A stretch of 61,869 nucleotides of DNA, filler included, from Dugesia japonica (Eukaryota), in NCBI GenBank assembly GCA_001938525.1. It is 6 parts of 6 records of this genome, joined end to end, with 100 filler letters (N's around TTAATTAATTAA, not from the genome) between each part and the next. Parts side by side here need not be neighbours in the genome. Positions count along the whole stretch, not along the records: positions 1 to 11,880 come from MQRL01489706.1; positions 11,981 to 20,382 come from MQRL01641616.1; positions 20,483 to 31,945 come from MQRL01646171.1; positions 32,046 to 40,772 come from MQRL01551412.1; positions 40,873 to 51,860 come from MQRL01608088.1; positions 51,961 to 61,869 come from MQRL01622383.1. One strand, written 5' to 3'. Made by a program: the position numbers and the translations under genes. Shown one piece after another: positions 504 to 60,966 of this stretch; position 1 is the first letter of the stretch, and the number at the start of each line of letters is the position of its first letter. Below the pieces are notes generated by a model, which saw nothing but the letters and a program-made list of their open reading frames with translations, was not told where the DNA came from and searched no databases.

Positions 504-955
504 TTAGATTTTCTTTGCAATATTTTTGACTTTTCATATAACTCCTACCGAATTAATTGATTTCTTATAGCCTTTAATCTCCCCTTGAATCATCGATTGG
601 TTGTTGTCTTTATATTGTTTTTCGTCTCTTTCCTTAAAACCTATATGAATAGTGTCATATACTCCAATTTGCCTGCTTAATATTGCAAACAGAGCTTCCA
701 CTATGTTTCCATCCTTCTCATGAATTCCAAATAGAAAGAGATTAAATTTAGATATTTTTATTGAAACTGGTTTCTAAAATAAAATATTAATTTATAAAAT
801 GTAATAAAAATAATTACATTTTACATATAAATAATTAAATAATAAATAATCAGAATCTTTAAAAAGAACAACTTGTAATTGAGGAAATCGGTAATTTTCC
901 ATAGTTCCACAGTTATTGTTGACAAGTTTTCCTTAGTGAGTGGTTTTACTTGCAT
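504..955 (-). pseudogene. Two-exon small gene of unknown family, paralogue of 60530-60966, with in-frame stops
   Basis: ATG at 955 reads MQVKPLTKENLSTITVELWK...; 44-bp GT-AG intron at 817-774; exon 2 reads KPVSIKISKFNLFLFGIHEKDGNIVEALF...SMIQGEIKGYKKSINSVGVI*KVK; TATA-like TATATAA about 45 nt upstream; aligns by eye with the 60530 copy. Confidence 0.6.
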
Positions 956-1214
956 TTTTGAGTTGTAAAAGTGATTAATGTTATGTAAACATTTGGTTAT
1001 ATACTAGCTGCAATACACACATACTTGTTATTTGTGAGTTCCTATTGGTAATTATTTGCTATCATTGATATAATTTGTTACTATTTCTTTTAACTGTTGC
1101 GATTAGTTAATATAAAATTAATATGATTTGATAATATTTGTTTTTTAATTGGTTACCGGGCTTATATAAACATGACTTGGTTTTCATAATAAATTTACAT
1201 TCTACAGAAGGAAA

Positions 1215-1716
1215 ATGAATTTCTTTAAAAATTTCGTTGAAAATCCTTATCAAAATGTATAAGTTATTAAACATATTGTTAAACAGGAAATATTAGTAAA
1301 TATAATTACCATTATTGATAACTAATCCNTGAATATTAATGAAGAAATAGAAGAAACAATCATTCAAGATGAACAAAAACCAGATGATNAAAATATAGAT
1401 GACGNATGTATAAAAAATACCAATATTTTTATGGTAAGAGTTTTATTTATTTATCCAACCTTATTAAATTTCTTTTCTAGAATTAGCGAAGCAGATATTA
1501 AATGAAAGGTTTCCAGAATTTCTTAATGACTGTATACTGGTGACTATGGAGTAATATTTTGATTATTTATTGCGAACAACAGCAATTGACATTGATCTTA
1601 TTATGAACGATTACATATTGTAACTTCAATTGGATTTGCTATGCAATTTAAACAAGACACTTTACGACATAATGAAGGAACATATTCTAAAGATGGCTAA
1701 AGAATTTGAAAACTAA
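1215..1716 (+). pseudogene. Decayed spliced gene of unknown function
   Basis: TATATAAA at 1163; ATG 1215 (MNFFKNFVENPYQN...NEEIEETIIQDEQKPDD); 47-bp intron gtaagag...ttttctag at 1434-1480; second exon ELAKQILNERFPEFLND...MKEHILKMAKEFEN*; several TAA stops and a frame slip. Confidence 0.4.
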
Positions 1717-1859
1717 TGTACTAATGTGCTAACAATAAATGTTTTATTGGATAGTTGTTTTGTCTTATTTACTTTTTAGTAGTAAATTAATGAATGTAAC
1801 AGGTATGAAATAGGAATGCAACATATATTCACTGAGAATCATTTGCCGGGGAATTCTTA

Positions 1860-2950
1860 TGATAATTACAATATGCATGCAATTTATATGACTATCTCTA
1901 TTACATGGCTACTATATAATTAATACCAGGTAACTATGCAAATAAACAATACATTATATGATTACTATGTAAATAATACACTATTAAACCATATAACACA
2001 TGGTTACTATGTAAAAACTACAAGGTAACTATACAAATAATATACTCGTAAACCTTATTTTACATGGTTAATATGTAAATAATATACTAATAAACCCTAT
2101 AACACAGAGTTACTATGAAAATAATATACTCACAAACCTTATACATTCATAAAAATACTTACTTATAAGGTATATTTACAGTAATTTTAAGTTATTTATA
2201 TGAAAATGTTCCACACTCATAATCCTTATTATACATAATTGCTATGTAAATTATGCATGGTAACTATGAAAATAATATACTCATAAACCCTTTATTACAC
2301 GTTTGGTATGCAAATAATACACTCATCAACCCTATAAACTCAATAACTACATACAAGCATAAAAATATTTTCTTATAAGTTTTTATATAGACTTATAAGT
2401 TATATATTGTAAGGTTCCATGAATTTATGATTTTTTTGAAAGAATTTCTATGTTTTTATCATTTTGTAAAGAAATGTTCTCAACTAATATGTTTTTTATA
2501 GAAAAATTGAATGACTTATACATTATTTATAAGAAAATCGCAACACCAATATGTTTTTTATAGAAAATGTCCTAGCTAATTTGTTTTGTAAGAAAGAAGT
2601 TCTGTTTTTATCATCTTATAAAGAAAGGTTTTATTTTTAAATATATATTTACATTTAAATATTACAAAGACACCCCTTTTTGAAACAATATACAGTAACT
2701 ATGTAAATAATACAAATAATACAGCTTTACTATGAAAATAATACATAAAATGTTTTTTTAAAAATTAATATTTTTAAAAATTTCATAATTCCAATTAAGA
2801 TAATATGAAATTAAGCTGAAAATAATATCGCTTAACTATGTAAATAATGCAGTGTAAGTATGTAAATCATACATAATACAAAAAAAAACTTTTAAATTAA
2901 TATTATTTAAAATTCATAATTACAATTAAGATAATATGAAATTAAGCAAT
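1860..2950. repeat. Degenerate tandem repeat (gtaactatgtaaataataca-like units) with a ~130-bp direct duplication (2694-2817 / 2832-2947)
   Basis: Recurrent ACTATGTAAATAATA motif; duplicated cataatt.caattaagataatatgaaattaagc. Confidence 0.75.
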
Positions 2951-3268
2951 CAATAAATATAAAAAATGTTGAGTTTATTTGCTCTATTTTCAATTTTTTT
3001 AATGCATATTTTTACTTCATATTTTCAAAGACCTCACTTCAATAATCTTAAAAGACTGTCATATAGTGAGAAAAGAAGATAGTTAGTCTGAGTGATAGTG
3101 ATTAAGAGTTGATATAACATTTTTTTAATTTAAAATACTATAACTATTTGAGTACATTTTAATCATCTGATGATCCTTTTTCTTCTTTACTTGAAACTTG
3201 GTAACCGTGCTTGCTCTTTGGTTTAATTGGATTCTTCTTCCTTTTGATAACCAACATTAAGATACATT

Positions 3269-3620
3269 AGTAGGTAGATTGTTGCGCACTGTATCACCCC
3301 TCTCAAAGTCAACTTTTTTCAAGGTCACTGATACACTATACATGATTGGGATTGGTCTGTGATCTAGTACACTCAATTCTGATTGTTGGAAAATTTGAAG
3401 GTCGATTTTTCAAGGTCAAATTGGCACAGTATCCTGCGATCTGATTGTTCAAAGTAGTTCAAGGTCAAAGTGATATAGTATACCGCGTTTTGATTGGTCG
3501 AAACATTTCAAGGTCAAAGTGAGTTAGTATCTAGTGATCTGATTGTTAGAATATTTCAAGGTCAAATGAAAGTAGGTCAAGCTCATTTTCATGACAACTA
3601 TTTGTAGGTCAATGTCAACT
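3269..3620 (+). mobile_element. AGTAG-terminus element end (Polinton/Maverick-like TIR?) with TCAAGGTCA/TGATTGG tandem array
   Basis: Starts AGTAGGTAGATTGTTGCGCACTGTATCACCCC, shared with 11279, 32730 (rc), 37795 and 60106; followed by ~50-60 bp units containing TTCAAGGTCA and TGATTG(G/T). Confidence 0.7.
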
Positions 3621-3749
3621 ATCATTCAGACATGTTTAATAATTACTCTAACCTTTAATCCTCGTTCAGACTTAATATTATTAATTTCCGCATTAACATT
3701 ATATACTTAACCCAACATCAGAATCAAAAAATAAAGATTATATCAGTTT

Positions 3750-5960
3750 ATGTCGTGATTTTCTTACAAAGACTAATGAAATTAAAGACATTAAGAATTG
3801 CCCAATTGCGATTGCATGCTTTGACATAAAAGATGCTTTTGGTAGTGTTCCACACTGTTAATTTTGGCATTGCTATAATATATTAAGGTTGAAAATGACT
3901 TTGCTAACATCCTAGAACTTCTATACTCTGATATATCTTCATTCTATACTTGTAGTTCAATAATCATAACAAATATTCTAATCAGGAGAGGAGTCAAACA
4001 AGGCTGCCCATTTATATATGATCTTATTTAATTTGGCTATCAATTCATCACTCCAATCAATTTCTGCATCCCGCACAATACCTTTTATGATAGGGTCATC
4101 AAAAATTCAGACTCTTTCATATGCTGATAATTTGGCACTCGTTGCAACTAATACTGAAGACCTTTATAAAATAATAAATATGGCAATATGAACTGCAAAA
4201 ATCATTGGATTTGAATTTTGACCTGCTAAATGGGCTTATCTTAAACTACCTCAAACCAACTTCACCAGCAAAATCTCTATAAATGATAAGAAAATAAAAA
4301 ATTAACTATAAAATAATTTTATCAATATTTTGGCATTCCGGTCGGAGACAGAAATGACCAAAGTCTTTATGAGACGATACAACAAGTCATTGATGATTTA
4401 ACAAAAAGTTCTGATTCAGACTTACTAGGAGGGCAGAAGCTAAAGAAATACAAAAGTATTCCTACATTCTAGACTCACATTTGGATTCAAAATGCGCGAA
4501 ATCTAGCGCGAAAATTAGTGCCAATAGCCTTCCACAGAATAATCCAAATGTTAGTAACAACAATATTAGTAAGGTTTGTTTCCAAGTTAGGCGCATATTA
4601 AATCTTTCGAAACGATCTGAAATTCTTTACTTCTACAATTCAACCGAAATTAGAGGAGCTGCTTGCGTCGATCTGTTGGATGAATATCAAACTCAATGTG
4701 TTGTGCAATATTTTAAATTACTTACCTCAAGATGCATGTACACAAACAAAATCAATATAGACTCCTTAAGTCTCGCAGCAAATTCAAGAATAAATTAACT
4801 AAACCCATCTCTAAATAAATGTTTCGAATGGATAAATGGGAAAAAACATTAAAAACCTCAAATGCCAAGAAAACGCACTTTACGCGAAAATGAACTGCAA
4901 TATAATTTTTCAAAAAGACTCATGATACAGATATATCGTTAAATGTACTTAATAAAAAAATAGTCCTTTATATGACCAACAAGACAAGAGGAACGTATGT
5001 TATTAATCATACATCTCGTAAAGAAATTTCAAATATCATTTACAACTTAGTCTTTGATTCATACCCTGAAAATGGGAAAAAAGCAAAGGAAGCAACTTGA
5101 TATTCACAGCTATTCAAATGAGCCCTATTATTAATTAAATGATTTTCAAAATTGACCTCAATGAATTTTAGTGGAATTTTATTCACAGTGCACTAACAAA
5201 CTCTCTATCAATACGTGGAAGATCCTTTTATGAAAAAAAACTGTCGGCGCTGTTTTACTGAAAATGAATCTTTATCACATGTTCTTCAAAAATGCAAAAT
5301 GAATCAAGCAATAGCAATTGAAAGACATAATGCTTGCCTTGATATTATTATCAGTAAACTTATAACCTCAGATGCTATTGTTGAGGTCAATAGAATAAAT
5401 AAATATATTTCGGATTCTAGCGAAAGAGTGGATGCTACAGTAACTAATGTTGAAAAAAAACAATATATCTAATTGATGTCAAATGCCCAATAGACTCCGA
5501 AAAGAATTTTGAAGAGTGTGACAAAAGAAATTTAGATAAATATGATCTACTAAACAATAAAGTNAAAATAGCGAAGCCTGACTTTAAAGTAGAATTACAT
5601 ACTTGCATAATTGGATCACTTGGCTCAATTCTAACCGCAACTATCTGAATTCTAGAAAAAATTATCGAAAACTAAAATTTAATAAAAAGAATATTAAAAG
5701 ATTGCTCCAAACCAAATATAACCTACTCAGCAGAAATATGGAAGTTCCACAAAACTGGCATTAGAAACAACAAAATAACTTCCAATATTGAAGAAAAGTA
5801 TATAAAGAATTGAAGAAACGTGTGTGAGTTCCATGTAGAAGCAAAAACAAGACTGTTTGTATATTCAAACTTGTTATATTTAATAAATTTTATTATTACT
5901 ACAAACTCAAACACTGAGGAGATTATTTCTTCGACTTACAAGTGAGCTTTTATAAAAAAA
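3750..5960 (+). mobile_element. 5'-truncated, decayed non-LTR retrotransposon with RT and C-terminal restriction-like endonuclease (R2/NeSL/R4-type)
   Basis: Translated motifs ACFDIKDAFGSVPH, RRGVKQGCP, LSYADNLAL (YADD), YQYFGIP; CCHC knuckle CRRC...HVLQKC; ERHN, SERVD, LIDVKCP, KYDLL, IIGSLGS; A-rich tail near 5955; many stops and frameshifts. Confidence 0.9.
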
Positions 5961-6614: not shown

Positions 6615-6716
6615 AGTAGTGGGTTAGGGTAAACAATGGGCCACCTGTGAATGGGTTAGGGTAAACAATGGGCCACCTGTGAATGGGTTAGGGTAAAAAA
6701 TGGGCCACCTGTGAAT
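6615..6716 (+). repeat. AGTAGT followed by 3 x 32-bp tandem repeat GGGTTAGGGTAAACAATGGGCCACCTGTGAAT
   Basis: Three nearly perfect copies at 6621-6716. Confidence 0.9.
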
Positions 6717-6739
6717 GAAATTTATTAAAATTTATTAAA

Positions 6740-11278: not shown

Positions 11279-11710
11279 AGTAGATAGATAGTAGAGCACT
11301 GGATCAACCAATCGTCAAGGTCAAATTTTTTAAAGGTCAGTGATCTAGTATACTTGATTCTGATTGGTTTAAATAATTCAAGGTTGAATTTTTAAGGTCA
11401 GTGATCTAGTATACTGAATTTTGATTGGTGGAAAATCTCAAGGTCGAATGTTCAAAGTCAGTGATCAAGTATACTCGATTATGATTGGTTGAAATAATTC
11501 AAGGTGGAATTTTCAAGGTCAGTGATTTAGTATACTGGATTTTGATTGGTTGAAAATCTAAAGGTCAAATTCTCAAGGTCGAATGTTCAAGTTCAGGGAT
11601 CTAGTATACTCGATTCTGATTGGCTGAAAACTCAAGGTCAAAGTGATTTAATATACTCGATTTAGATTGGTTGAAATAATTCAAGGTGAATTTTCAAGGT
11701 CAGATTCATT
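11279..11710 (+). mobile_element. AGTAG-terminus element end with ~60-bp TCAAGGTCA/TGATTGG array, inserted in a mariner
   Basis: AGTAGATAGATAGTAGAGCACTGGATCAACC begins exactly where the mariner coding sequence stops; about 14 AAGGT(C)-type motifs and 6 GATTGG motifs. Confidence 0.75.
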
Positions 11711-14130: not shown

Positions 14131-14889
14131 AATAACATTCTTCTGGTATGAGGAACCTCAGCACACATTCAGTAGGGGATATTTGCGCACTGCCTCAAGG
14201 GGTGCAAACACCCACCCAGACGTAATCGGATTATTACATAAGTTATCCAATCAAAGTTCTTATATGGTAGCTTCTGACTTAGTGCCCATCCGTATAAATA
14301 TATAAACCAGACTTTCTAAACAATTAACCATAATAAATTTAATTTATTTAATAGCTATTCCATCCAAGTTCATTAAACACTATAAAATTAAATACAATCA
14401 ATAAACCAATTGTTGAAAATTATATGTAAAGTATGCCCCTGAGCAATAGGATTTTTTTCATTTTAGTCATAAATACATAGAAATGAAGTAAAAATTTCTA
14501 AAAATTACTAAAAGGATTTTTTTTAATTTTTAAGAGGAAAAAAGGAATGGAGAAAGCGGAGGTTCAAAAAGAGGGTAGGTGAGTTTTTTGCAGAGGTACA
14601 CGCAGAAATGCAGACAGTTGGTGAAGATGAAAGATAAATGATTATATTATTTTAGAAGTGTTTGAAAATAGTACAGAGTTTCTATGTAGTGTTCGAATAT
14701 CTTTTAGATTTTCAGAGAAGTGTCGGAATATTATAAAGAATTTTTGAGATATATTAAAAGTTTATACAGAATTTCAGAGAAGTGTTGGAAAATTATTCAA
14801 AATTTCCGAGTAGTTTGTGGAAATTAATAAAGATTTCACAAAAGTCATAAATTGTTATACGATGATAAAATATTTCATACTCTATTTAA

Positions 14890-15340
14890 CTATTAATAAA
14901 AGTTGTTACACATATTCGTTTGATGGGTACAAATCATCAATTCTTTGCAATAGTGTACTTAAAACTTGAATGTTATTTAGTCATATTTCAAAAGGAAATA
15001 TGTCTCCTATAGATTTGAAATAATTTTAATTAAAATTATTAATTAATTATATTAACATTTTAAATATATTTTGTTTCAATTCATAGTTTGCAAAAAAATG
15101 TAATCTTTTCAAATTTCAAAATTTATTATTCGTGTATATAAATCAAATCTTTCAGAAATTGTTCAATATTACAAAGAAAACATGTCGACAATTGTATACA
15201 TTCTATCTAGACCAGTACAAATAATTTAACTCGATACATCCATTAACCAAATACAGCCAATAAACCTATTACATTCAATGAACCCGATGCATTCATTAAA
15301 CCTATACATTCAATTCATTTACGTATTTGACTTACATATT
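14890..15340 (+). repeat. Dispersed ~450-bp non-coding repeat (copy 1)
   Basis: Collinear with 45643-46090 (aaaagttgttacaca...gggtacaa.tcatcaattc...acgtatttgacttaca); partial inverted copy at 61795-61869. Confidence 0.85.
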
Positions 15341-15579
15341 ATATTCAGTGCTGTTATTAATCTTAATATACTCGTTCAAGTTAAGCAATTCAATCACCTT
15401 ATTCATTGAATATGCTTAATTTGTCCCATTAGACATAAATCAATAAGCAAAAGTTACTACTTTCATTAAAATAAATACTAAGCTGATTCTAATGTTTACT
15501 GATGGTTAACATGATTCTATAGTCATAATTCATTTCATCATACAACTAATGATACAGGTAATCAAATAACATAGTTATA

Positions 15580-18290: not shown

Positions 18291-19279
18291 TGTACGATAA
18301 AAATTGACCAAAACATTTTGTATTGAAAATTCGAATTTTCGACATTCCCGAGCAAACATTCGACTGTTCCAACTTGAATTCGAAATTTGTTTTCACATAT
18401 TCGTAACGACCAATCAAAATGGTTCCATACTAAAACAGTCAAAACAATGAAATTAGTAAAACATTCGGTGGCGGGGGAGCGGGGTAACTGTACCAGTACT
18501 GACAAATCTGCCTACTATCTTTGTATGATATTTTATTTTTGTTTTTATAACCTAGTGAATTTTTATCGGCGTTCACGGATCTTTTGTGCTCCATAACCTT
18601 GTCTCAAGTACTCCACCAAATAATTACAATTAGAATTATTTTATCTATATAATTATTATTTGATTTGAATAAATGAAAAATTTGATATTTTGAAATCAAT
18701 ATTAATTATTTCTGATTCTCCGGGAAAGTTTCATGTAATTAAATGTGCCCCATCCTTAAAAGGTTAAGAACCACTTTTATAATCACTGCGAATTTAGAAA
18801 ATTTCAAAAATATAACTTCATAGTTTATTTTCCAAAAATATTTTCAATAAAAAAATTGCCAAAAAAAAATTTTTTTTATTTGAAAACAGCAAATCATTTT
18901 AAATGTAAAACTCACTGTTCATTCAAAACATATTGTCTAGTCAAATTTAATTGATCGAGTTCTGAAAGAATAAAGACTGATTCATTTACGAATATTAATT
19001 GAAACTAAGAATATATAGATTTAGATCAAAACTAATGGAAATCTAAAGTTAAGTAAATAACGTAACTGTCTAGCCTGTAATTTATCATATTTATTTATTT
19101 AAACGATTTCAAAAAAATTTTAGAATTATGATTTTTTGATATAATTTCCAATATTATAAAATAATAAATTATCGAAATAAAAATCTATTCTTAAAATAAA
19201 ATAAATTCATTTATTTAAATAAATTAATTATAATTTATATATTGTTATCCAGTTTTCAATCGACTAAGATAACTATATA

Positions 19280-20482: not shown

Positions 20483-20869
20483 TTAATATTATAAGTTGAG
20501 AAGAATTGTTATACTAATAAATTGTTTATGTTATTCTATTGTTTATTTGTTATCAATTTGTAAAAATGTAAATGTTAATTTTGTTTTGTTCAAACTAAAT
20601 TTAATAATATTTTCTTTAATTTTATAATTTCTTTAATCAATTTTTCATGTAATGTTTTCATTTTCCCAAACACGAAATTTCGGAGTTAATCAAAGAGAAT
20701 TACATTTTCAGATTGTCTCATTCTCTCACAATGTGACAAATTGTGATTGGAAGTGTTGAATTGTGATATTGTAACCATCGATATTATGATTGTTGACTTT
20801 TAATATTAGTCATTGTTTTTCATTATGAAACAACTCCTAAACCAGAAGAAAATAATTATAATTTATTGG

Positions 20870-21800
20870 TTTAAAAAATGCATTATTTGACATGTAGAAA
20901 TGTACAATTATTTTTTACAACAAGCAGAAATAAACATTATTTTTGTATCGGGTGTATGAATTGTTTTGTTGATTTCCAAAACATGAAAATCACTCTTTTC
21001 AAAATAATTATTACAAAAAAATGCCTTTTGTAGTTTATGGTGATTTTGAAAGTTGGACAGACAGAAATACTAAAAGACAAAAGCATTTATCTCTTGGAAT
21101 TTATGTAGTTAGTATATATCATATTTTAAATGAATACAAAGAATTTCATGGTTAAAATATTCATGAACAATTAGTTTGAATTTTTAAATCACCTAAATAA
21201 TAAATTAAATGATTTTAAAGAAAATAAATTAATTAAAGAGTTTAATGCGGTAGAGTTAACTTACCCTGATTTTTCAGAAAAAACTAAATGTAGATATTGG
21301 TGATAAAATATAAACTCAACTGAAAGGAACCCTATGTTAGATCATGATCATTTCGATGATGATTATAGAGGATTTGCTCATAAATAATGATATCTACAAG
21401 ATAAATCTGTAAAAAGATTATTTATTTTATTTTATTTTCACATTGCTTCAGGTTATGATAAATATTTAATTATCAAAGAATTATTAGCAAAATATCCACA
21501 TAAAGTAAAACGAATAATTCGTCATAGCGATAAAGTTTATATTTCATTTCAAAATGAAAATATTAGATTTCTTTATTCATAAAGATTATGTCCAGCTACA
21601 TCAATTTATACAATTTATAAATTATTAACTCAATCATCAAACTATAATTATTTGAGATTTAGAACCAAAGAAGATATCATTTCCTTATGAATATGTAAAA
21701 GGAGAAAATATACAACAAATAATTCAATTATTAAAATCAGATAATATTCCAACTCTACAAGATTTTTTCAATACTCTTCAAAATCAAAAAATAACCAAAC
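20870..21800 (+). mobile_element. Polinton/Maverick/adintovirus-type protein-primed DNA polymerase B relic (exonuclease part with EndoVII-like insert)
   Basis: FCIGCMNCF, MPFVVYGDFES, LDHDHFDDDYRGFAH, FHIASGYDKYLIIKELL, IRFLYS, ISFPYEY in the order known for Polinton pPolB. Confidence 0.85.
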
Positions 21801-21869
21801 AATAGTGTTAGATGAGTTTTGAGAACTCATCGGATTGTCAACATCAAAAGTCAACTACATAAAATTTAT

Positions 21870-32245: not shown

Positions 32246-32730
32246 CCCTCCCCCCCCCGGGCGGGGTGTTCTATGAAAATAGTTCTTTGTTAAAATGGAC
32301 TTAGAAAATTTTTCGATAAAAAGTATGACTCCTGATCTATGATNNNNNNNNNNNNNNNNNNNNNNNNNNNNNNNNNNNNNNNNNNNNNNNNNNTGAAAAT
32401 AGTTCTTTGTTAAAATGGACTTAGAAAATTTTTCGATAAAAAGTATGACTCCTGATCTATGATTTTCATTTTTTGTTAAGTGAACATAAAAAAATTTTGA
32501 AAAAAAAAATTTTTAAATTTAACCAAAATTTGCATGAGTCATCGGCTTTGTCTTATTCATCGATGACTCATCTTTAGGCTTCTATGAGTCATACCGATGA
32601 CTCATCGATGACTCATCGTCTTTGTCTCGAGTCAACGATGACTCACACCTATGACTCATCATCACAGATATATTATTTCTTCTTCGGCGGGGGGGGAGGG
32701 GGTGATCTAGTGTGGTACTATCTACCTACT
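32246..32730 (-). mobile_element. AGTAG-terminus element end (reverse orientation) with TGA(C/G)TCA cluster
   Basis: Reverse complement of 32701-32730 is AGTAGGTAGATAGTACCACACTAGATCACC; 7 perfect TGA(C/G)TCA at 32535-32658; inverted C-run/G-run pair at ~32246 and ~32688-32700. Confidence 0.7.
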
Positions 32731-37597: not shown

Positions 37598-37637
<40 letters not shown>

Positions 37638-39457: not shown

Positions 39458-40772
39458 TAGTAGCACAGAGAGTCGAGGTGTGCGCGAACCCCTCGGATTA
39501 GTGATGTAATTTTTGTGATTATCCGTAATTTGATAGTTTAATCTATGATGTAATTAATACATCGGAAATTGATTCCATCAATTAAATTTATTGTGTAATG
39601 TTTAATCTTTTAATTTTTTTATGTAATTTTTAATAATTAATTTTAATTGGTAAGATTTTTTCAAGCTTTTAAGGCGGTAAAATATTTTATAATGATTTTA
39701 GTTGGCAAAGGTTTTTCAAGCTTTTTAATCGGCAATTTTTTTTCAGACTTTTTTAAGCAATAATAATTTTGCGTAATTTTTGGGTGAATTTGTCGAATAT
39801 TTCCTCAAGATTGGTCAGTTTAGGTAATGTTTGGATGATTCAGTCAAATATGTCATTAATCTGGTTGATTTTGCTTCATTTTTTTGCGATTTTGTCAATT
39901 TCTTCGTTGTTTAAGTGAAGTTGACTTATTTTTGGACGACTAGATCAAATATTTTCTCGATTTGGGTAGTTCTTGAATAATTCGGTCAAATAGATCCTCG
40001 GAAATGGTTAATTTGGTTGATTTGGTAAAAATTTTCCTCAGCATTGGTTTTAATTAACTTTTAAAAGGTAATTTTGAAAATAAATTAGATTCAATGTATC
40101 TTTATGGTTAAAATTATATTAGCAAATTTATTAAGAATATAAAATTTTGAAATGATTTGTAACTTTTTATTGATTATATTGCAAATAAGATTGATTAAAT
40201 AAAATCAAATATTATGGATTTAATAAGTTTCAAATAATTTTGAGAAGAATATCTAAAACATTAATTTTAAGTGTAAAATACAGTGGTTTTAATCTTTTTA
40301 AAATAATAAGTGAAATTTAAGCTTTTACAATTTTAAAGATGAAAAAACCTTTAGAATTTTTATTTTTAATTAAACTGTTACAATAGTAGATTGATAGTGG
40401 TGCATAAGAACAGCACACATTCATTTACTCCCCGTGACGTTATGAAATTTAATCCTAATGCATTTAGTTAGGAATTTAATATTGAGTCATAAATTGCATC
40501 ATTAGGTAACTATTACATTACTGTTTTTAAATTTCTCTGTGTATTTAGTTGGGAAAACCTTTTGCAAACAAATTATGTCATGAGATTAATTTCATTGTCG
40601 AAATTTTATGTAATAGGATTAACTGTTTTCAAATTTTTCTGATATATTTAGTTGGGAAATTCTTTTAGTCTTTTTAGGTTGTAACTGTTTTTAAGTTTTC
40701 CCTGTGCATTTAGTTGGGAAAATTTTCTTTATAGGCTTTTGGTAATTTTTGAGAGAATTTGGTTTATCATTT

Positions 40773-46960: not shown

Positions 46961-48262
46961 CAGGGGGTTCCAATTTAAGGTTATATTTTAAATTTTCAAT
47001 AACAGAAGCTAAAGATATGAAATGTAGCAATATATTTATTTACAATGATAGTACATATATTCCGGTTTAGCAATGAAAAATAATGACATGCAAGTGACCT
47101 CCTGCTGCTGCATAGCAAGCACCCATTCTTTTACAAATGTTTTTTATGACATTTTGGCACAACTGGAGCTTAATTTCACCAATTTCATAGATGATGTTCT
47201 CCTTAAGTTCAACAATTGTTTGAGGGTCGCTAATATACACTTTTTCCTTAAAAAAATCCGAAAAGAAAAAATCTAGAAGCGTTAGATCGCAGGATCTGGG
47301 TGGCCAATTGATGTTTGCATTTCGAGAAATTAATCTTTCACCAAATCGTTCTCTTAAAAGGGTAATTGATTCTTTTGACGTAGGAGATGTGGCACCATCC
47401 TGTTGAAACCACATGTTCCGGTTATCCATACCTTTCAATTTATGAAACAAACACTTTCCAATCATATTTCGATATCGAGCTCCGGCAACTGTTACAGAAT
47501 TCCCAGCTTCATTCTCACAAAAAAGGACCGATAACCCCACCCGCCCATAAACCACACCAAACATTTNCCTTTTGTGAATAAAATTGTTTATGTAGTATTT
47601 CATGTGAGTTTTCATTGCCACAAATTCTATAATTCTGCGTGTTCACAAATTCTCCTATTTCAAAATATGCTTCGTTGCTAAAGATCACTTTTTGGAAAGA
47701 TATTTCATTTTCATGTATATTTTCAATGACCCATTTACTGAATTTACGGCGTATTACAAAGTCTGTCGACTTTATTTTTTGAGTTATTTGAATCTTGAAT
47801 GCCTTAAAATGAAGATCCTCATGCATAATTCTGAATAACGTCGTTCTTGGAATGGATAGTTGATGTGAACGATGATGTATTGACGTTTTTGGTTTCTCAC
47901 TCACACTACAGCTTATGGCTGCAATATTTGTTTCCGAGCGACCACTTTTATGATATTCTCGGCGTCGTTCATCTTTCATCGAGCTACTCTTTATAAATTG
48001 TTTGATAACTTTTTGAATTGTCACATGTGACGGCCACTTTCTCTTCCATATTCAGACTTAAATTTTCTGCGAACTTCAGCATAACTTTCGCCGTATTTAA
48101 AATAATTTTTTACCATAAATACTTTTTTTTCAATGGTATAACGATTCATTTTTAAAAACCATATGAATTACTTTTGTTTATTCAAAAATTATTGATTTAA
48201 TAAAACAAAACAGAAATAAATGGAATTAAATTTAAAATGTAACCTTAAATTGGAACACCCTG
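46961..48262 (-). mobile_element. Full-length rosa-type (DD41D) Tc1/mariner transposon, frameshifted
   Basis: TIR CAGGG(G/T)GTTCCAATTTAAGGTTA at both ends with TA flanks; ATG at 48149; FSNEA, WFQQDGA, WPPRSCDLTLLDF with 41 residues between the second and third D. Confidence 0.93.
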
Positions 48263-48371
48263 TATTTTAAATGAATTCTTAAAAACAATCAATGGTTACG
48301 GCTAACAATTATTTTTGCATTAATTGTAATTGTAAAATTATTATTATTATCATTATTTTTATTATTACCAT

Positions 48372-51300: not shown

Positions 51301-52340
51301 GCTGTTTATTATTTCTGTATGCATTTCAAAAATTACTTGTACGGTAGAAGATTTACTCTTAGAACAGATCATAAAGCTCTAACTTTCATAATGACGACAA
51401 AGAAACCAATTACGTCGTATTTCCAGACATGGATTAATTATCTAAGCAGTTTAGATATGGTTTTGGAATAAAGAAAAGGAATTCAACATGCTAATGCAGA
51501 TGTTATCTAGACAAAGATGTGAGGTATGTGTACAGTGTCAAATGTCACATGAAAATGACAAGAAAGGAAGATTAAAACGAGANTACTGAACATAATTGAA
51601 AAGGAAAAAGAAGATCAATTAAACATTTCTAAGGAAACAGATTTGATAAAGAAAATGAAAATTCCGGATGACAAACTACATGAAACAATAGAAGAAATAC
51701 ATAAAGTATTATGTCATGCAGGTGTTGAAAAGGTGTACGAATATATGAGAAACAAATATATTGCAAAGTATTTGTGGAGCCAAATTCAGAAGATAGTTCG
51801 TAGTTGTGAAATTTGTCAGAAGACCAAAGTAGTGACAACACCAACTAAAGAGAAGACAAANNNNNNNNNNNNNNNNNNNNNNNNNNNNNNNNNNNNNNNN
51901 NNNNTTAATTAATTAANNNNNNNNNNNNNNNNNNNNNNNNNNNNNNNNNNNNNNNNNNNNAATGATAAATAAAAAAAAAATTGTAATAATAATAATTTTC
52001 TAGTCCATATCATCATAACACAAATGGCCAAATCGAGAGTCAGTTTAGAACTTCGAGGGATATGATTAATACAACGCTTAAATAAAGAAAAATTTCAGAT
52101 TGGGCATATGTATTACCAGAAATAAAATTTACCTTAAATGCTACAAAACAGAGAACTATCAGGAAAAGCACTGCTGAAATCGTATTTTGGAAGAGAATTA
52201 GCAGAGAAAAATGGTATGAAACCAATACCCAAAGAGTGCACAGAGAGCAAGAAGAAGAAATATTGACCAAAAGACAATTANAGATCGGTGATGAGGTCTT
52301 AGTGAAAGCTGAAACAAGAAACAAGAGCCAAGATCGTTTG
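48372..52340 (+). mobile_element. Near-complete decayed Ty3/Gypsy element (family B): LTR 48372-48562, PBS 48563, gag, PR, RT, RH, IN
   Basis: PBS TGGTAGCAGCG; CCHC knuckles; CLLDT; VYLDDILIF; FILDTDAS; HKVLCH...CEIC; the integrase C-terminal part (SPYHHNTNGQIE) lies beyond the linker and may be another copy. Confidence 0.92.
51861..51960. other. Artificial assembly linker
   Basis: 44N-TTAATTAATTAA-44N. Confidence 0.95.
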
Positions 52341-53037
52341 ATTTTTCCGGTTTTGAATATGAATTTTTAAATTTGTTTGTTTAATTAACTAATGATGTCA
52401 TAATTTTATATTAATAAACCGTTGTAATGAATTTGAATTCTGATGTTAATGATTCGATGAGTTTTCNNNNNNNNNNNNNNNNNNNNNNNNNNNNNNNNNN
52501 NNNNNNNNNNNNNNNNNNNNNNNNNNNNNNNNNNNNNNNNNNNNNNNNNNNNNNNNNNNNNNNNNNNNNNNNNNNNNNNNNNNNNNNNNNNNNNNNNNNN
52601 NNNNNNNNNNNNNNNAATTAATAATTGTATCTCAAGATGAGATAAATAATTATTTCTCGAAACATGTAATATATTTTGAAATGGAGTTTCAGAGGTTTTA
52701 TTAACATATTGCCATTTCAGATTACAAATAGAATTATTGCTAGAATAATTTTTGGACAATTAAGTATTTATCGTATTTTTAAAGTTTTAATAAATTAAAA
52801 AGCTTAGATGAAAATGTTTTTATTGTTACGAGTTCCGAAAAAGAATCATTTTTCATTTATGGAAAATTCTAATCGTTGTCATATTTATTTTTATCACAGC
52901 ATTCCAATCAATATTAAACATTTAATTGTCAGTAATTTTATTAGTTACGTATTTTTATTTTTTCTTTTAATTTAATTTATTATCAATATTTTTCCTTTAA
53001 AATGAAATTACAAATCTCTATTTATTAATCATTTCAG

Positions 53038-56000
53038 ATTCAATGTGGACTGGATCACTCATTAGTTCTTACGGATAAAGGACGAGTATATTCCTGTGGT
53101 CTTGGTACTGATGGTCAAACAGGCTTACAAACATATGAAAATGTTTTCAGATTTAATGAAATTTCATTTCCTGAGTCCTCAATCGTAATCAAGTAATTAC
53201 ATTAAAATAACACAAAATATCTTTGATAAATAAAAAATTTCAATAATAAATTATGAATAAAATAAAATTACATTTGAGAAATAATTATTGAAAAACACTA
53301 AATAACGTTTTTAATAAATAAATATTAATGATTTCTTGCAATCTGATTGGTTGCCTACAATATTAGGTCGTTAAGTATTAGGTCCTTAGTTTGACAATCG
53401 ATATCTTTTAATATTTTACCTTGAAAATTATTTGCTTTCGTTTGAATGTTAAAATACGTCATCAACTTTTGATATTTCCAATTTATCAAAAACTATGTCA
53501 CATTAATATCGATTATAAACATTTAATTATTAAATTTTAATAAAATAGGATTTAGATTCTAGAATTTTAGTAAAATATAAAAAGTCTCTTGCAGTACTCT
53601 TGGATTTCATCGCGGCACACAGTTTGTGACACACTGTTCTAAATGAATTTGCAATGTGTAATACAATAACAACAACNNNNNNNNNNNNNNNNNNNNNNNN
53701 NNNNNNNNNNNNNNNNNNNNNNNNNNNNNNNNNNNNNNNNNNNNNNNNNNNNNNNNCAAAATCGCAATTTCTGAATCGCAGGTATCTTGAGATAAAGTAA
53801 AACCATAATATGCTTCCAAAATTAGACGATAGCTTCCAACTGGAGTTTTCTTTAGGTTGAATAATAACAAGACAAAATAAAAAACTACTTTTTTCTCTAA
53901 AATAGCTAAATCAATAATCAATACTTGCTCTATTTGAATTTATAATGATTGCAAATTCACTTTTGTTTAAATTAAGTTATTGTTTTATCTGAAGAAGAAA
54001 TTAATTTATTAAAATTTGGACCCAATTTTAGTATTAGAAAACGAATTGATAATTTTCAATTGCAATCAAAAATCGAGTCCTTTTTTAACTATTATTTGAA
54101 CACACACAAAAATAAATTTTGTCTAAAAATATTAGTTGTGATTTGGAACATGAATTATCTTTTAAGCACGTTTCAATTTCCGATTATATTGTCTTCTTAG
54201 ATCAAATTTTAAGAAACGATGGATATGTTAAAAAATTGGGCACATCTTTTATCGGAAATAGAATTTGCAGAAGACGACTGGTAAGAGCCCGGCTGAGATC
54301 GTATTGAGAAAGAAAATTAGCAGAGAAAAGTAGTACGAGTCAGAAGTTTCAGAAAGAACTAAAGAAAACATTTGAGAAGTGACTACTAATAGAAAATTCA
54401 AAATAGGAGAATATGTCCTCATCAAGGTAGAAACAAGAAATAAAAGTCAATACAGATTTGTATGTCCTTATCGAGAAAATTCACGAAAGACGGTATGCAG
54501 TACGGAGAAAATGGACAGCGATTAGAAATAAATGTGGAAAAACTTAGAAAGTTTCTTAAGAAAGAGGATATAAGGAAATAATTATTATTTAATAATTTCT
54601 GCCAATAGAAAGCGATTAAATTGAATATTAATATTTAATTAATTCTATCAACTATAGTTATCTAATCAGTTATCTGTTTAAGTAGTGAAATAAATTATGC
54701 CTAAAAATATTAGTTGTGATTTAGAAAATAAATTATCAATTTAAGATTTACCTAACATGGTATTCGTATTATTTTCGAATATGAGTTCCATCGTGGAACC
54801 AATGCAAAGCAAACAGTTCGGAACATAAACGAAGTGTGANNNNNNNNNNNNNNNNNNNNNNNNNNNNNNNNNNNNNNNNNNNNNNNNNNNNNNNNNNNNN
54901 NNNNNNNNNNNNNNNNAAGCCTCGTAGGCGACCTCAGACGAATGATAATCTGAAAGTTTTAGTTACTCTCAAATTAGCGACAAAGTTCAACGTTTCCATT
55001 CCAATAATATTAAATTGTTTTTACATGAAATTCTGACAGGAGATGAGAGTCCCAAACGCTAGAAATCATGGATTGATCCGAGTCAAGATTCAAAACAGAC
55101 TGCAAAGCAAAATTGTTTTGGAAAGAAAGCAATGCTCCGCGTTTGGTGGGATTAAAAGGGTATGGTATATTATTATCTTCTAAAACAAGGTGAAACTATT
55201 AAATCTGATCTCTATAAAAAGAATAATGGAGCTGAACAATTGTTTGATTACCAAATGTTCAGAATGGACCAAAAGACATGGTAAAGTTATTTTTTTCAAT
55301 GACAACGCACCGTCATATACTTCAAAAGGAGTAAAAAACACGTTTAAAGATCTAGCCTGGAAAGTACTCACCCACCCGCCATACTCACAAGATCTTGTTC
55401 CATTAGATTTTTATCTGTTCCGATCAATGGCACATGGACTTGCTGAGCAGCAATTTAAAACCTACGTAGATGTCCAAAAATAAGTCTCTGAATGGTTCGC
55501 CTCGAAACAAGAAAAATTCTTTTGGGACGGCATCCACAAGTTACCTGAAAGATGGGAGAAATTTGTAGTTAATAATGGTAATTTCTTTGAATAAAATATT
55601 TTTATGAATCTTTTAAAATTTTCGTGTATTGTTTTTCAAAAAAATCTGCATTACTTTCCCGTACACCTAATAATAGACTAGTTAAAACTTATTGGCAAAG
55701 TCATAAAGTAAGGCCGATGAGTTCCATATGAATTAAGTGACCAGCAGAAAAGAAATTGTCTAGAGGCTTTTTTAGTGTCGCGATATAAATGCGAACCTTT
55801 CTTCAACGTATTGAGACATGTGATGAAAAAAGGATTTCATTTTATCGACGTCTATGCAATTATATAAAATATTTAGTGACTTCTATGCAATTTTATAAAA
55901 TATTTAGTGACTTCTATGCAATTTTATAAAATATTTAGTGACTTGTTCGCAATTATATAAAATATTTAGTGACTTCTATGCAATTTTATAGTAAAAAATA

Positions 56001-59000
56001 GTATGCGGAGGAACATATTTGAGCAAATCTTACGTTTTTTCCATTGTGCAAATAATAATTTGTCAAATATAATTGATAACACGGGGAAATTGCTGCCGTT
56101 AATTACTGGAAATAAAAGAATTGCCATGAAAATTTTATATCAGAACCACAGTTATCATGTGACGAGTGTATTTATACGAGGAAAGCCTATTAGGACGAGG
56201 TATAAGGTATGGTGCATGAATACTGTATCAGGATATCTAGTAGATTTTGACAAGTATCAAGGAAAAAATTTTACAAAAAATGAAAAATATGAAAAAGATT
56301 TTGGTGCGATATGATAAAACAGATAATTTTGTCGTAAACATTCCTAACGATAAGAAGAGAAAATGTGATGATCTAACTTGTCCGTCAATCATAAGAACCA
56401 TGTGTAAAAAATGAAATATCGGTTTATAAACTGTTTTGAAATTTATCATTTAAGGAATTATTTTTTTTTTGTATATTTATACATATTTTGTCTATTTTTG
56501 TGCAATAAAATTAAAGATTATATGTTATTTATGTATGACTATCAATAAACATATAAAGTAGCTGAAGTGCTTAGCGTTGCCATATGGCAACGTCTTATAT
56601 CTTTGGCTAAAACATATTTTTTCGCAAAAACCCCATATTCTTTCTAAACAGATGTAACTAATATTTATTTAAAAGGAAATTTCAAATTTCAAAAAAAAAT
56701 TTAATTCAAGTTATTAAGGGTTAAATATCATCAATTCTTGATATTAAATTATTTTTAAATTATACTTTTTGATGGANNNNNNNNNNNNNNNNNNNNNNNN
56801 NNNNNNATATTTTGAACTTTTATAATTGATGTTACAATTCTACATTGATAGAAAAATTTCCTGTTGTGCTGACACTAATTTGTCCCTAACAAATGATAAT
56901 CGAATTTTCGGATGGGGAAACAACGAATATGGCCAATTGTTTGAACATATAAATGAAATTCAAATTAATCAACCAACTGAATTAATATTTGACAATAGTG
57001 AAGAAGTTCAAGATGTTTTAGCATTAGGCTCATTTTGTTTAGTTGTTACCAACACCGATAAAGTAATTATTTCAATTATAANNNNNNNNNNNNNNNNNNN
57101 NNNNNNNNNNNNNNNNNNNNNNNNNNNNNNNNNNNNNNNNNNNNNNNNNNNNNNNNNNNNNNNNNNNNNNNNNNNNNNNNTAGTATTGTATGTTGCAATC
57201 ATAATCAATTAGTTTCATTTCACGATTATGATTTTAGAACTAAGAAGGACGATAAATTATATTTGTAGTTAATACGTTCACTGTCATACCAGTTAAATAC
57301 AACTCGGATTAATGTTATGCTTAATACGACTACGTAGAAAAGCGGCGCAAGAAACGAGCGAAGGCTTAAGAAATTCTTTAAGTTATATGAAAAAATTAAA
57401 ACTGAAAAGGTGAAAATAATTTGATATTTCAAAGTAATAAGCTATTCTATTTAAATTGTCCAAGGTCGTCATGGTTCCATAAATTTATAATTATACTTAA
57501 AGACGATATTCAATTGGTCGTTCTTGTATTTATCTGCTTGTGACTGTCTAATCTTTATTTAAGACAGAATGCATGAAAAAAGAAATTTGGTGTGCCTGCA
57601 GACTAAAAAACGTTTGCGAATCACTGGTCTAAAGCCTGAACTGAATCGTTAAATTTTCAACTCATTATCAATTAAATCTTACTTTAAAGAATTCTATTTT
57701 ATATCGAAAAACGTAATCATTTTAAAATATTTTAAATTAAATGTATTTATTCAGTCTCTATTGTTTGAACAAAGATTAATGCGATTATACTGAATATAAG
57801 ATGACTATAAATTCTTAATTTTAAAAATTCTTAGTTATTAAATTTTTTAAAAATTTTTAAATACAAAATTATTTTATAATCTAATAAAACATTTTTACAA
57901 TAATATTTTATTAAAGTTACTATTTAATTCTATAGTAATTTTAATAACATATAATAAAAAAATTTATTATTAGATTATAAAATAATTTTGTATTTAATAA
58001 TTTTTAAAAAATTTAATAACTAGGAATTTTTAAAATTAAGATTTATAACCATCTTATATTCAGTATAATCGCATTAATCTTTGTTTAAATGTATTTGTTT
58101 AATCAATTCAAAAAATAAACATAAATTTAAATCTATATTATAAAAATAATAATCGCTGTAAAATGTTTTTTATTCATAGCAGTCACCAGCCTCAATAACT
58201 TTCTTCATTTTTTCAATAGATGCATTCAAGGCTTTACCCATTGGAATATTTATGAATTTTGGTAGATCACTATTTAGAAATGTTCTTATTTCATAAATAT
58301 GTTTAAAATCTGTAAGACTTCTCTCCAGTCTTTTAAAAAAATAATTGTCACAAATATTTATATCTGGTGAATATGGTGATTAACGAAGAGGTTTTACGTT
58401 TTTAGAGTCTAAGAATTCAATAGTATCGTGAGCAATATGTGATCGAGCGTTGTCATGCATAAGATACATATTTTGTGGAGAAAACTTTAATGAGATTTTG
58501 AAGAAATTGAATATCTCAGAATTGATCATTTCATTCCGTTCTAATATTTCAAATTAAAGGTACCACCTTTGTGAAATAGCAATAATGACCATTTACTTAT
58601 TTCCCATCGTTGATCTGACAGGAGTCTGAGTAGNNNNNNNNNNNNNNNNNNNNNNNNNNNNNNNNNNNNNNNNNNNNNNNNNNNNNNNNNNNNNNNNNNN
58701 NNNNNNNNNNNNNNNNNNNNNNNNNNNNNNNNNNNNNNNNNNNNNNNNNNNCTTTTTTTGTAATAAACCAATTAATTCATTACATCGATCAACACGAAGA
58801 GTTTTGTTGCCATCTGCAAGAACATGAGATACCCATGTTGTGTGATACCATAGAACCTCTAGATCTTCTCGAATTACACGTTGAACCATCTAATGGGTTA
58901 TTTGCAAATATTCGGATATTTCGTCAATAGTCATACTACCATATTCTTCTCTACACCTTTTAACATGATCAACGTTCCTCGCTTTTTCTTCTTCCACTTC

Positions 59001-59510
59001 CTTTCTGACGCTGAAAGGTTTATCTTTCTCCAGTACGAAATTGTCTCATAAGTCTTATAATTTGAATAACACTTATATATATCTGAAGCAATGCTTTATG
59101 AAGGATCTCATAAACCTCATAAAAAAATTTATTTGATAATTTGTAATAAAAAAAATAAAATATCACGATTTGTTTATTTTTATATTTTTGAAATATATTT
59201 ATTTCATAATCAGATAATGGCTTGGGGATTTGGAAAATTCAATGACCACGCAACAGCATATAGATATCCAACAGAAGTACAATTAATTGGAAATAATGGG
59301 GAAATTGTAAAAGAAAAGATAATTAAAATTCGAGGATCTGTTCATTATGCTGTGTTGATGACTATATCGGGTAGAATGTTTGTTGTTAGCAATTATCCAA
59401 GAGATAAGCGGAGCATAAATTCAGATAGATTTGTATCAAATGAAGTTATATTTCCTAGACCTGTTATTGATTTCTGCAGTGGTTCTGATAGTATTTTCTA
59501 CTCTATGTGA
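53038..59510 (+). CDS. RCC1L: RCC1-like protein (RCC1L/WBSCR16 orthologue), 3' exons 53038-53192, 56852-57062, 59214-59510
   Basis: Phase-compatible GT-AG splicing gives CGLDHSLVLTDKGRVYSCGLGTDGQTGL...IFGWGNNEYGQL...QINQP...IMAWGFG...VIDFCSGSD*, matching recalled RCC1L motifs (CGQDHSLFLTDKGEVYSCGWGADGQTGL, LFGWGNSEYLQL). 5' exons not found. Confidence 0.85.
53600..53900 (-). mobile_element. Mariner N-terminal fragment, intronic
   Basis: LLLFNLKKTPVGSYRLILEAY...LSQDTC resembles the mariner N-terminal HTH. Confidence 0.6.
53975..54100 (+). mobile_element. Penelope-like N-terminal fragment
   Basis: LSEEEINLLKFGPNFSI motif typical of PLE N-termini. Confidence 0.55.
54119..54762 (+). mobile_element. 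Gypsy family B 3' end: IN tail, PPT, LTR 54569-54757, then TGGTA
   Basis: FKIGEYVLIKVETRNKSQ; PPT aagaaagagga; LTR homologous to 30148 and 48372. Confidence 0.85.
54763..55670 (+). mobile_element. Decayed mariner, intronic
   Basis: IFEYEFHRGTNA, KAMLRVWWD, NDNAP, HPPYSQDLVPLDFYLFRSM; TIR ttactttcccgtacacctaa + TA. Confidence 0.9.
55850..55992. repeat. 31-bp tandem repeat GACTTCTATGCAATTTTATAAAATATTTAGT, about 4.5 copies
   Basis: Directly visible; a second short mariner fragment (VPYELSD, RIETCDEK) precedes it at 55675-55845. Confidence 0.9.
56003..56724 (+). mobile_element. Internally deleted piggyBac (PGBD3-like) with right end
   Basis: MRRNIFEQILRFFH, FIRGKPIRTRYKVW, Cys-rich tail; subterminal palindrome CGTTGCCATATGGCAACG; terminus AAGGG-TTAA at 56716-56724. 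Confidence 0.88.
57768..58085. mobile_element. MITE-like foldback with ~125-bp inverted arms
   Basis: aacaaagattaatgcgattatactgaatataagatg ... catcttatattcagtataatcgcattaatctttgtt. Confidence 0.85.
58170..59050 (-). mobile_element. Decayed mariner, intronic
   Basis: WVSHVL, LMHDNARSH, SPYSPDINICD. Confidence 0.85.
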
Positions 59511-59952
59511 ATAAATTGGCAATAGTTGTATTAAATATCACTTGAAAAAGCAAATGTCAACATTTGATATGCATTTTAGAGATAAAATGTAAAAGAATAC
59601 TATTTTATGTGGCTCACAGTAACTTTTACGGGGAATGATTCATTTGTAAATCATTTAATAAAATTTCTTTTTGAACTTTNNNNNNNNNNNNNNNNNNNNN
59701 NNNNNNNNNNNNNNNNNNNNNNNNNNNNNNNNNNNNNNNNNNNNNNNNNNNNNNNNNNNNNNNNNNNNNNNNNNNNNNNNNNNNNNNNNNNNNNNNNNNN
59801 NNNNNNNNNNAGAGTAATTGTTGGACATAACCATTGATCGTTTTTCAGAATTCATTTAAAATAAAAGCTTTTAATAAAAAAAAATTTTGATTGAAGCTTT
59901 TATTTTAAATGAATTATCATTATTATCATTATTATCATTATTATCATTATTA

Positions 59953-59984
<32 letters not shown>

Positions 59985-60105
59985 GTTATTATTAATATTA
60001 TTATTATTATTATAAGATAAATTAGTAATAATATCTAGAAGGATAAAATAATTATGTGAATAAAAATTACCAACGAGGTGGTCATTAATCACTATTTCTA
60101 GTTGT

Positions 60106-60315
60106 AGTAGGTAGATAGTGGCGCATTGATTTTTCAATTAAGACCACCCCCGGGCATAAAAATTTAAAAGAAAATTAAAAACGGGCATAAAAAATTTAAA
60201 AGAAATTTAAAAACTGGCATAAAAATGTAAAAGAAAATAAAAAACGGGCATAAAAATGTAAAAGAAATTAAAAAACGGGCATAAATTTTAAAAGAAATTT
60301 AAAAATGGGCATAAA
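60106..60315 (+). mobile_element. AGTAG-terminus element end with 6 x ~31-bp GGGCATAAAAA tandem array
   Basis: AGTAGGTAGATAGTGGCGCA...CACCCC, then units at 60151, 60182, 60214, 60245, 60276 and 60306. Confidence 0.7.
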
Positions 60316-60529
60316 GTTGGTGATAATATTCAATGAAAATCAATTTTACAATTTAAATCAATATTAATTTGATATAATTGAATTTAAAAGAGCTTAATTT
60401 AAATTAAATATGATTCGATTGTTCTAGAATCGATTGTTTAAATGCATATATGTAATTAATAAATACACACCTATTCTAAAACCTATATAAACAGAATATT
60501 TAATTAATTATTTATTATTTCAACTGAGA

Positions 60530-60966
60530 ATGCCAGTAACTCTTACCATGGAAAATTCGTCTAAACTAAAATTCGAATTTGAAAAACCAAGAAATTACTT
60601 CAAGCATGAGATGATTTTCTAAAAGAAATCAATAAATTATACTTTTCAAGTAAGATTTAATTTGCTTATTACTTTTTTAATACTTTTATTCAGGATCCAG
60701 TAAAAGTAAAACCTTGTATTTAGGATTTGTACATATCTGAAATCAGTGACAAAGATCAAAAGACTCTTAATGAATTATTCGTAAGAATTAATGGAAACGT
60801 AAAAATTGAAGATGCTACATTTATTAAATCTAAAGAAGAAAATGTTCAAGAAAGTAAATCAATCATTACAGTTGAAATTATTGGTTATAAGAAATTGGAT
60901 GATATAATAAAACCAATTTGGAAAGTTAAATCAACTGAAAAGTGTGAGGATAATTTTATTGAATAA
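60530..60966 (+). pseudogene. Two-exon small gene of unknown family, paralogue of 504-955
   Basis: TATATAAA at 60484; ATG 60530 (MPVTLTMENSSKLKFEFEK); 44-bp intron 60650-60693; exon 2 DPVKVKPCI*DLYISEISDKDQKTLNELF...SIITVEIIGYKK...IWKVK; single frame with two stops. Confidence 0.6.

Follow-up and report, generated by a model that had tools for sequence, protein, structure and literature searches.

Two small reading frames at opposite ends of a stretch of Dugesia japonica DNA raise the question of whether they are copies of a single gene and, if so, what has carried that gene around the genome. The stretch analysed here, the window, comprises 61,869 nucleotides from six records of GenBank assembly GCA_001938525.1, joined end to end. 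The initial annotation had described the two frames as divergent copies of a small spliced gene carried as cargo by mobile elements ending in AGTAG. We found that the two frames, referred to here as copies 1 and 2 of gene A, are the remains of a small, putatively spliced gene of about 130 codons in two exons, which is multi-copy in the genome. Gene A very probably resides in a mobile AGTAG-ended family, and we consider it fairly likely to be the resident gene of a large, high-copy family of such elements that derive from Polintons/Mavericks and have repeat-rich subterminal regions.

Gene A: two decayed copies, a putative intron and a protein family

The two copies and their putative promoter words have the following coordinates.

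504..955, minus strand: gene A copy 1, decayed (exon 1 955–818, GT-AG segment 817–774, exon 2 773–504)
997..1003, minus strand: TATA-like word of copy 1, 48 nt before the ATG
60484..60490, plus strand: TATA-like word of copy 2, 46 nt before the ATG
60530..60966, plus strand: gene A copy 2, decayed and high-copy (exon 1 60530–60649, intron 60650–60693, exon 2 60694–60966)

Both genes were confirmed on these strands, and neither copy is intact: copy 1 carries two in-frame stops (823–821 and 536–534), as does copy 2 (60620–60622 and 60721–60723). An alternative genetic code, prompted by these stops, was rejected: both stops and frameshifts interrupt the mobile-element genes of the window, relatives lack one of the stops, and the stops are of three kinds. 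The TATA proposed upstream of both copies is also present, as a TATATAA word that occurs 51 times in the window.

Judged by sequence comparison, the homology of the two copies is real. With in-frame stops read as X in the pairwise alignments, exon 2 of copy 2 matched copy 1 at 31% over 86 amino acids (aa) in a tblastn search within the window (E 2.1e-7; next-best match E 2.2), and the Smith-Waterman score of the exon 2 pair, 92, was reached by 0 of 10,000 shuffles (maximum 63). The exon 1 pair scored 45, a value attained by 4 of 10,000 shuffles, and the two exons jointly scored 120 against a shuffle maximum of 67. BLASTP restricted to the two stop-free parts gave no alignment, so that the pair lies near the limit of plain BLAST. 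A profile made without copy 1 found copy 1 at 40.4 bits (E 1.3e-14), and a profile search yielded no third copy within the window.

The two copies were also said to share a 44-bp intron at the same position. A 44-nt phase-0 GT-AG segment can indeed be drawn in both, and the acceptors are in register; the donors are offset, lying 46 (copy 1) and 40 (copy 2) codons from the ATG. The donor of copy 1 is doubtful because a stop, at codon 45, directly precedes it and because the tail of its “exon 1” is as AT-rich as an intron (GC 0.09 in the last 45 nt and 0.07 in the intron, versus 0.33 in the remaining exon 1). The sequence suggests that the true donor probably lay further upstream and has since been lost. 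The two lengths of 44 nt say little, because five other frame-consistent introns in the window measure 47, 45 (or 54), 48, 44 and 47 nt, and 44–48 nt is therefore the local norm. The intron argument was accordingly overstated, and the cargo idea that accompanied it was largely right. The deepest contig across the copy 2 intron lacks one intron letter. In each of two DNA runs one contig connects 60620 with 60695. In X1 the two positions are separated by 27 letters, which amounts to a net loss of the intron and three letters. This intron-less genomic form is inexact and hints at past splicing.

RNA reads were placed on the copy 2 region at 84% likeness, 132 from run X22 and 15 from run X21. Four of these were 95–99% alike and none was 99% alike, which indicates that they derive from relatives of copy 2. 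These relatives do not share the exon 1 stop of copy 2: all 14 of 14 RNA reads differ within the codon, as does over 99% of the DNA depth (3,977 of 3,986 and 6,736 of 6,774). Synonymous changes made up 8 of the 22 coding differences listed, a selected and biased subset, against 18% expected (P 0.036).

The gene A family exists, is old and has many genomic copies. A search with exon 2 among 1.84 billion representatives returned five proteins at E up to 0.001, of which P0001 is 89% identical to the query and P0002–P0005 are 38–49% identical. All five are unnamed, lie on contigs of 764–1,460 bases and start within exon 2, as might be expected of a prokaryotic gene caller applied to a spliced gene. 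The family comprises six lineages with pairwise identities of 24–44%, and leave-one-out profiles regained every member at 40–78 bits. No named relative was found among these representatives, and a single-protein search of a large protein database returned the query itself only. Pfam, PHROGs, NCBIfam, PDB sequences and the ESM Atlas gave no informative match; the best PHROG was a 48-position family of unknown function (E 0.001–0.006; 2 of 6 family members scanned). Scans of metagenome contigs for gene context were empty (2 of 2), and viral contigs were empty for gene A, for gene B (see below) and for a polymerase fragment. We found no description of the family in the literature, including passages of PMC8502044, PMC6431247, PMC3014272 and bioRxiv 10.1101/2024.01.15.575659; Repbase or Dfam may already hold the element.

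Two AlphaFold models were obtained, both of exon 2 only, with a mean predicted local distance difference test (pLDDT) score of 56 and 61. Both feature one helix and a long C-terminal beta-hairpin (hairpin pLDDT 70–83). Nothing matched in four fold searches with these models, in which Z reached 2.4 and 2.6 at best and Foldseek gave E values of 0.41 and 1.6. Such blanks are evidence of neither a new fold nor a difference; the comparison with the five-stranded barrel of the OB-fold likewise refers to exon 2 only, at the same pLDDT and best Z values. Based on the predicted helix and long hairpin with conserved aromatic and lysine residues, we tentatively hypothesise that the gene A product could be a small basic nucleic-acid-binding helper of element replication. 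A host-directed effector is about as possible.

The AGTAG ends and the surroundings of both copies

Copy 2 is flanked on both sides by features relevant to its mobility.

60106..60127, plus strand: AGTAG-type end; contig depth rises in its bin
60151..60315, plus strand: subterminal array, 5.3 copies of a 31-bp unit
61060..61597, minus strand: gene B, converging on copy 2, with a match to P0007

Copy 2 is the first gene inside the end at 60106 and reads inward from its TATA-like promoter. It had been placed about 200 bp past an AGTAG end; its ATG is in fact 424 bp from that end, and the shorter distance corresponds to the end of the 31-bp array (about 215 bp). Contigs from the two DNA runs (2,251 and 2,348) were placed on 60025–61160 and their depth was summed, a quantity that is not a copy number. 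Summed depth was 10–34 in the flank (60025–60100), rose to 844 and 556 in the bin that contains 60106, and was 21,900–41,400 over the array and 1,620–32,500 over gene A copy 2. Because depth steps up at the AGTAG end and stays high over copy 2, we consider this gene part of a high-copy element. Listed contigs bridge the end to the spacer (60144–60372), the array to the spacer (60304–60375) and the spacer to the promoter (60370–60454). A contig of 161 letters that runs from exon 1 through the intron into exon 2 has a depth of 867, compared with 10–15 for most listed pieces, which implies tens of near-identical gene A copies; there are probably hundreds of copies in all. The proposal that gene A is cargo of AGTAG-ended elements is thus supported for copy 2, by the depth step, the sustained depth and the bridging contigs, and falls short for copy 1, which is without such an end.

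Gene B is a second multi-copy orphan gene. Its unnamed relative P0007 matches 61597–61250 at 82% and 61170–61060 at 54%, on either side of a local microsatellite. P0007 covers gene B together with the sequence 3′ of gene A, so the two genes move jointly. Over 61051–61126 contig depth reaches a maximum of 85,000–92,000, and reads with loose ends occur in every run before 61090; this suggests either another very abundant repeat or a boundary between two kinds of element. A shared segment, 83–88% alike, occurs at 14892–15336, 45642–46089 and 61794–61869 and joins the element of copy 2 to two other places, one of which is inside the stretch 14171–18516 bounded by AGTAG-type ends. Outside the end at 60106, an RCC1-repeat gene lies in pieces (53035–59507, plus strand), broken by Ty3-related, mariner and piggyBac-like fragments.

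The surroundings of copy 1 are organised differently.

200..487, plus strand: unknown reading frame, converging tail-to-tail on copy 1 and stopping 17 bp from its stop
1209..1776, plus strand: decayed divergent gene by copy 1, unknown, with a 47-nt GT-AG segment (1434–1480)
1903..2950, strand not assigned: degenerate tandem arrays of 42-bp and other units, lying upstream of copy 1

Copy 1 forms a tight cluster between the convergent frame, which gave no family match, and the divergent gene, and it reads away from the arrays at 1903–2950. These arrays may represent the subterminal repeats of an element that has lost its end.

By itself, AGTAG carries little information in the window (73 matches versus 56 expected). 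A 20-letter end motif, allowing up to three mismatches, occurs five times, reference included, and in none of 50 shuffles; two weaker ends bring the total to seven, of which the remaining six are as follows.

3269..3290, plus strand: AGTAG-type end, followed by a 49-bp array
11279..11300, plus strand: AGTAG-type end, followed by a 61-bp array
14171..14192, plus strand: AGTAG-type end, the same as the end at 3269 in 19 of 23 columns
18495..18516, minus strand: weaker AGTAG-type end facing left, sharing 13–16 of 22 letters with four other ends
32709..32730, minus strand: AGTAG-type end facing left
40385..40406, plus strand: AGTAG-type end

Several of the ends lead into different tandem arrays. 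Their flanks are unrelated, with no TTAA, TA or other fixed flank ahead of the ends. The far end of the copy 2 element is beyond the window, and the metagenome and viral context scans contained one chance match to the end motif. About 400 bp inside the end at 3269 lies a decayed reverse transcriptase of the non-LTR (non-long-terminal-repeat) type (3700–5800, plus strand), which by eye has a C-terminal restriction-like nuclease. An ankyrin-repeat gene (42139–42883, plus strand), each of whose exons encodes one repeat and whose introns are 44–48 nt long, is situated 1.7 kb inside the end at 40385, past two assembly gaps; it may be additional cargo or belong to the host. At 6615–6717, AGTAGT is followed by three near-identical 32-bp units with a TTAGGG-like word, possibly a different element end.

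Proposed Polinton ancestry and the competing explanations

The case for a Polinton/Maverick origin draws on the ends and on two polymerase remnants.

20821..21657, plus strand: decayed protein-primed DNA polymerase B remnant of Polinton type with an endonuclease VII-like insertion
14241..14297, minus strand: 19-codon protein-primed DNA polymerase B fragment, 70 bp inside the end at 14171

Frames at 20875–21850 resembled protein-primed polymerase by eye, and a motif scan then gave 14 viral loci, 12 of which have open reading frames of 857–1,377 aa. Among the proteins scanned from six reference loci, DNA_pol_B_2 was found in two and Endonuclease_7 in five. The resulting polymerase profile matched 20821–21657 (i-E 4.3e-11), 20979–21206 (8.6e-6) and 14297–14241 (2.7e-5); the latter two of these three matches lie outside the motif that fetched the reference proteins. 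Searched directly against Pfam and phage families, the longer remnant gave either no match or a weak one, and the direct Pfam scans missed the short remnant as well. The short remnant near the end at 14171 looks as it would in an internally deleted element. Polinton polymerases are known to bear endonuclease insertions (PMC11161782), and vertebrate Mavericks have ends of (AGT)2 or (AG)3 and 6-bp target duplications (PMC8097293). All seven ends in the window start with AGTAG, which is five of the six letters of (AGT)2. Overall, we lean towards Polinton ancestry of the AGTAG-ended family.

The ends near (AGT)2, the polymerase remnants with an endonuclease insertion and one near-match of 6-bp flanks are shared with animal Polintons/Mavericks (PMC8097293; PMC11161782; PMC8502044). 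The differences are that the sixth end letter is not that of (AGT)2, that the ends share only about 22 letters, that genes A and B are not among the proteins of the 14 viral loci, and that intact vertebrate elements are intronless. A further likeness is to the cargo of nematode Mavericks (the wasp proteases as well as the krma kinases), intron-bearing genes located in the 2–5 kb beside the left terminal repeat (bioRxiv 10.1101/2022.07.12.499685). As there, gene A is a putatively intron-bearing gene just inside an end, most copies are incomplete or pseudogenised, and only part of the family lies by Maverick genes (20–23% in nematodes). A position within a few kb of the terminal repeat was found for one of the two gene A copies, copy 2 (424 bp, with continuity of depth). 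Gene A differs from the nematode genes in encoding an unrelated and far smaller protein without a known domain, in an apparently much greater copy number, and in that neither a host relative nor, beside the gene, a long terminal repeat or integrase was found. Gene A is a new protein family within a known kind of arrangement. With PRD1 P12 and Bam35 SSB, which bind single-stranded DNA in protein-primed replicons (PMC11886824; bioRxiv 10.1101/2021.03.25.437074), it shares, by analogy only, small size, a probable association with a protein-primed replicon and a predicted beta-hairpin with aromatic and basic residues; it differs from them in having no sequence or fold match, and those genes are without introns. 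By analogy, gene A behaves like a Maverick cargo gene, and its carrier is a candidate Polinton derivative.

Several observations weigh against a Polinton-derived carrier of gene A. Only one of the two copies lies by an AGTAG end, no such motif being present upstream of copy 1, and the chance that at least one of two gene starts falls within 500 bp inside one of five to seven ends is 4–6%. Summed depth falls to 142–2,705 in the spacer between array and gene, and no listed contig covers the end through the gene. The ends have about 22 letters in common and no long inverted repeats. The best target-site match, between the 6-bp flanks of the ends at 3269 and 32730, is five of six letters among 22 pairs tried; this pair brackets both polymerase remnants, with assembly gaps between, and its flank match is suggestive only. 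Neither copy's own element could be linked to a polymerase, integrase, ATPase or capsid gene. The four other profiles from the reference loci (labels by eye) matched nothing in the window, and neither these nor Pfam scans detected a Polinton integrase, packaging ATPase, protease or capsid, both elements running off the window; the integrase matches that are present belong to Ty3 elements. The Pfam scans covered 48001–61869 and 20483–21984 in read-through form. In 1–48000 they covered the stop-free frames of at least 68 aa, except for three repeat frames near 32050; of the window's 222 shorter stop-free frames, 93 were included. The 14 viral loci with the polymerase motif contain no relative of gene A or gene B, and intact vertebrate Maverick genes are intronless (PMC8097293). 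As for splicing, the putative intron has GT-AG borders, is AT-rich and is of host-like size, with no spliced RNA joint among the 15 of 44 joints listed. RNA reads of the relatives instead cross the intron (14–18 X22 reads at four positions within it); in most of them the first mate is on the plus strand, the antisense orientation if this is a stranded library of the common type.

Some of these points would suit a different kind of carrier, a cut-and-paste DNA transposon that has short terminal repeats and subterminal arrays and in which gene A would serve as a second, accessory gene; the polymerase remnants would then lie nearby without being related to it. Accessory genes occur in the Kolobok, PIF/Harbinger, MuDR and Zisupton families, and in cut-and-paste elements such genes are usually spliced. 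Ends that share about 22 letters before passing into different tandem arrays fit this explanation, as does the lack of a Polinton core gene linked to either copy. Within the window, however, the element of copy 2 contains no transposase, a polymerase fragment lies only 70 bp inside one end of the AGTAG family, and the ends are preceded by no fixed flank such as TTAA or TA; we regard this explanation as unlikely. Somewhat less likely still is a lineage-specific host multigene family with many pseudogenes, for which the element of copy 2 would have captured a member or landed beside one. The host-like TATA word and host-sized intron are in keeping with such a family, and so are copy 1, without an end motif, and the intron-less genomic form in each DNA run, which suggests past transcription and retroposition. 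A host family does not readily account for a depth that jumps in the bin with the end of the element and remains high across the gene, the spacer and the 3′ flank, nor for a yield of only 147 RNA reads in two runs, none of them at least 99% alike, or for the lack of any named relative among the 1.84 billion representatives.

The initial annotation also noted a weak likeness of exon 2 to the ORF1-type domain of long interspersed nuclear elements (LINEs), and this likeness is not supported. Copy 1 alone resembles the quoted motif, whose G is present in two of the seven aligned gene A members and whose final E in one of seven. The strand-helix start of exon 2 is compatible with such a domain; both low-confidence models of exon 2 are predicted to end in a beta-hairpin, where the domain has a helix. 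By eye, none of the nine loci obtained in a scan for ORF1-like references was ORF1. With E values allowed up to 10, Pfam contained no matching ORF1 family and PDB no matching structure, and no reverse transcriptase follows either copy, both being followed instead by convergent orphan frames. It is very improbable that exon 2 is a degenerate LINE ORF1-type RNA-binding domain.

Returning to the Polinton-derived carrier, we propose that gene A would have spread passively: a protein-primed polymerase would copy the element starting at its ends and an integrase would insert it, both enzymes being supplied in cis or in trans. Live copies would be transcribed from the TATA-like promoter by host RNA polymerase II and spliced by the host spliceosome, and the two window copies would represent dead insertions that decayed separately. 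A bolder version envisages a very large and old Polinton-derived radiation that has shed its long terminal repeats and core genes and carries spliced orphan genes, gene A being a conserved single-stranded DNA-binding helper, of a new family, in protein-primed replication. The orphan set would then consist of genes A and B, perhaps with the divergent gene by copy 1 and the ankyrin-repeat gene. We consider this version improbable.

Other contents of the window and implications

The window has about 25% GC, is gapped and is full of decayed mobile elements, including Ty3, mariner, piggyBac-like and pogo-like elements, a GIY-YIG frame and a non-LTR reverse transcriptase. The GIY-YIG frame (27171–27841, minus strand) and a fragment at 31473–31748 (plus strand) resemble Penelope-type retroelements. 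Identical 70-bp copies at 32274–32343 and 32394–32463 flank a 50-N gap and are probably an assembly overlap artefact. A 326-bp near-perfect palindrome (57764–58089, 90%) is probably a miniature inverted-repeat element.

Nematode Mavericks are known to have intron-bearing passengers, which transfer genes from one species to another and count a toxin among them. If our interpretation is correct, gene A would be a second, unrelated cargo family, amplified to many copies in another AT-rich genome and still recognisable over six deep lineages. Cargo slots would then be a general feature of these elements, and gene A would serve as a marker for elements without recognisable core genes. Should its protein aid replication, it would be a factor that we have not found described for Polintons in the literature.

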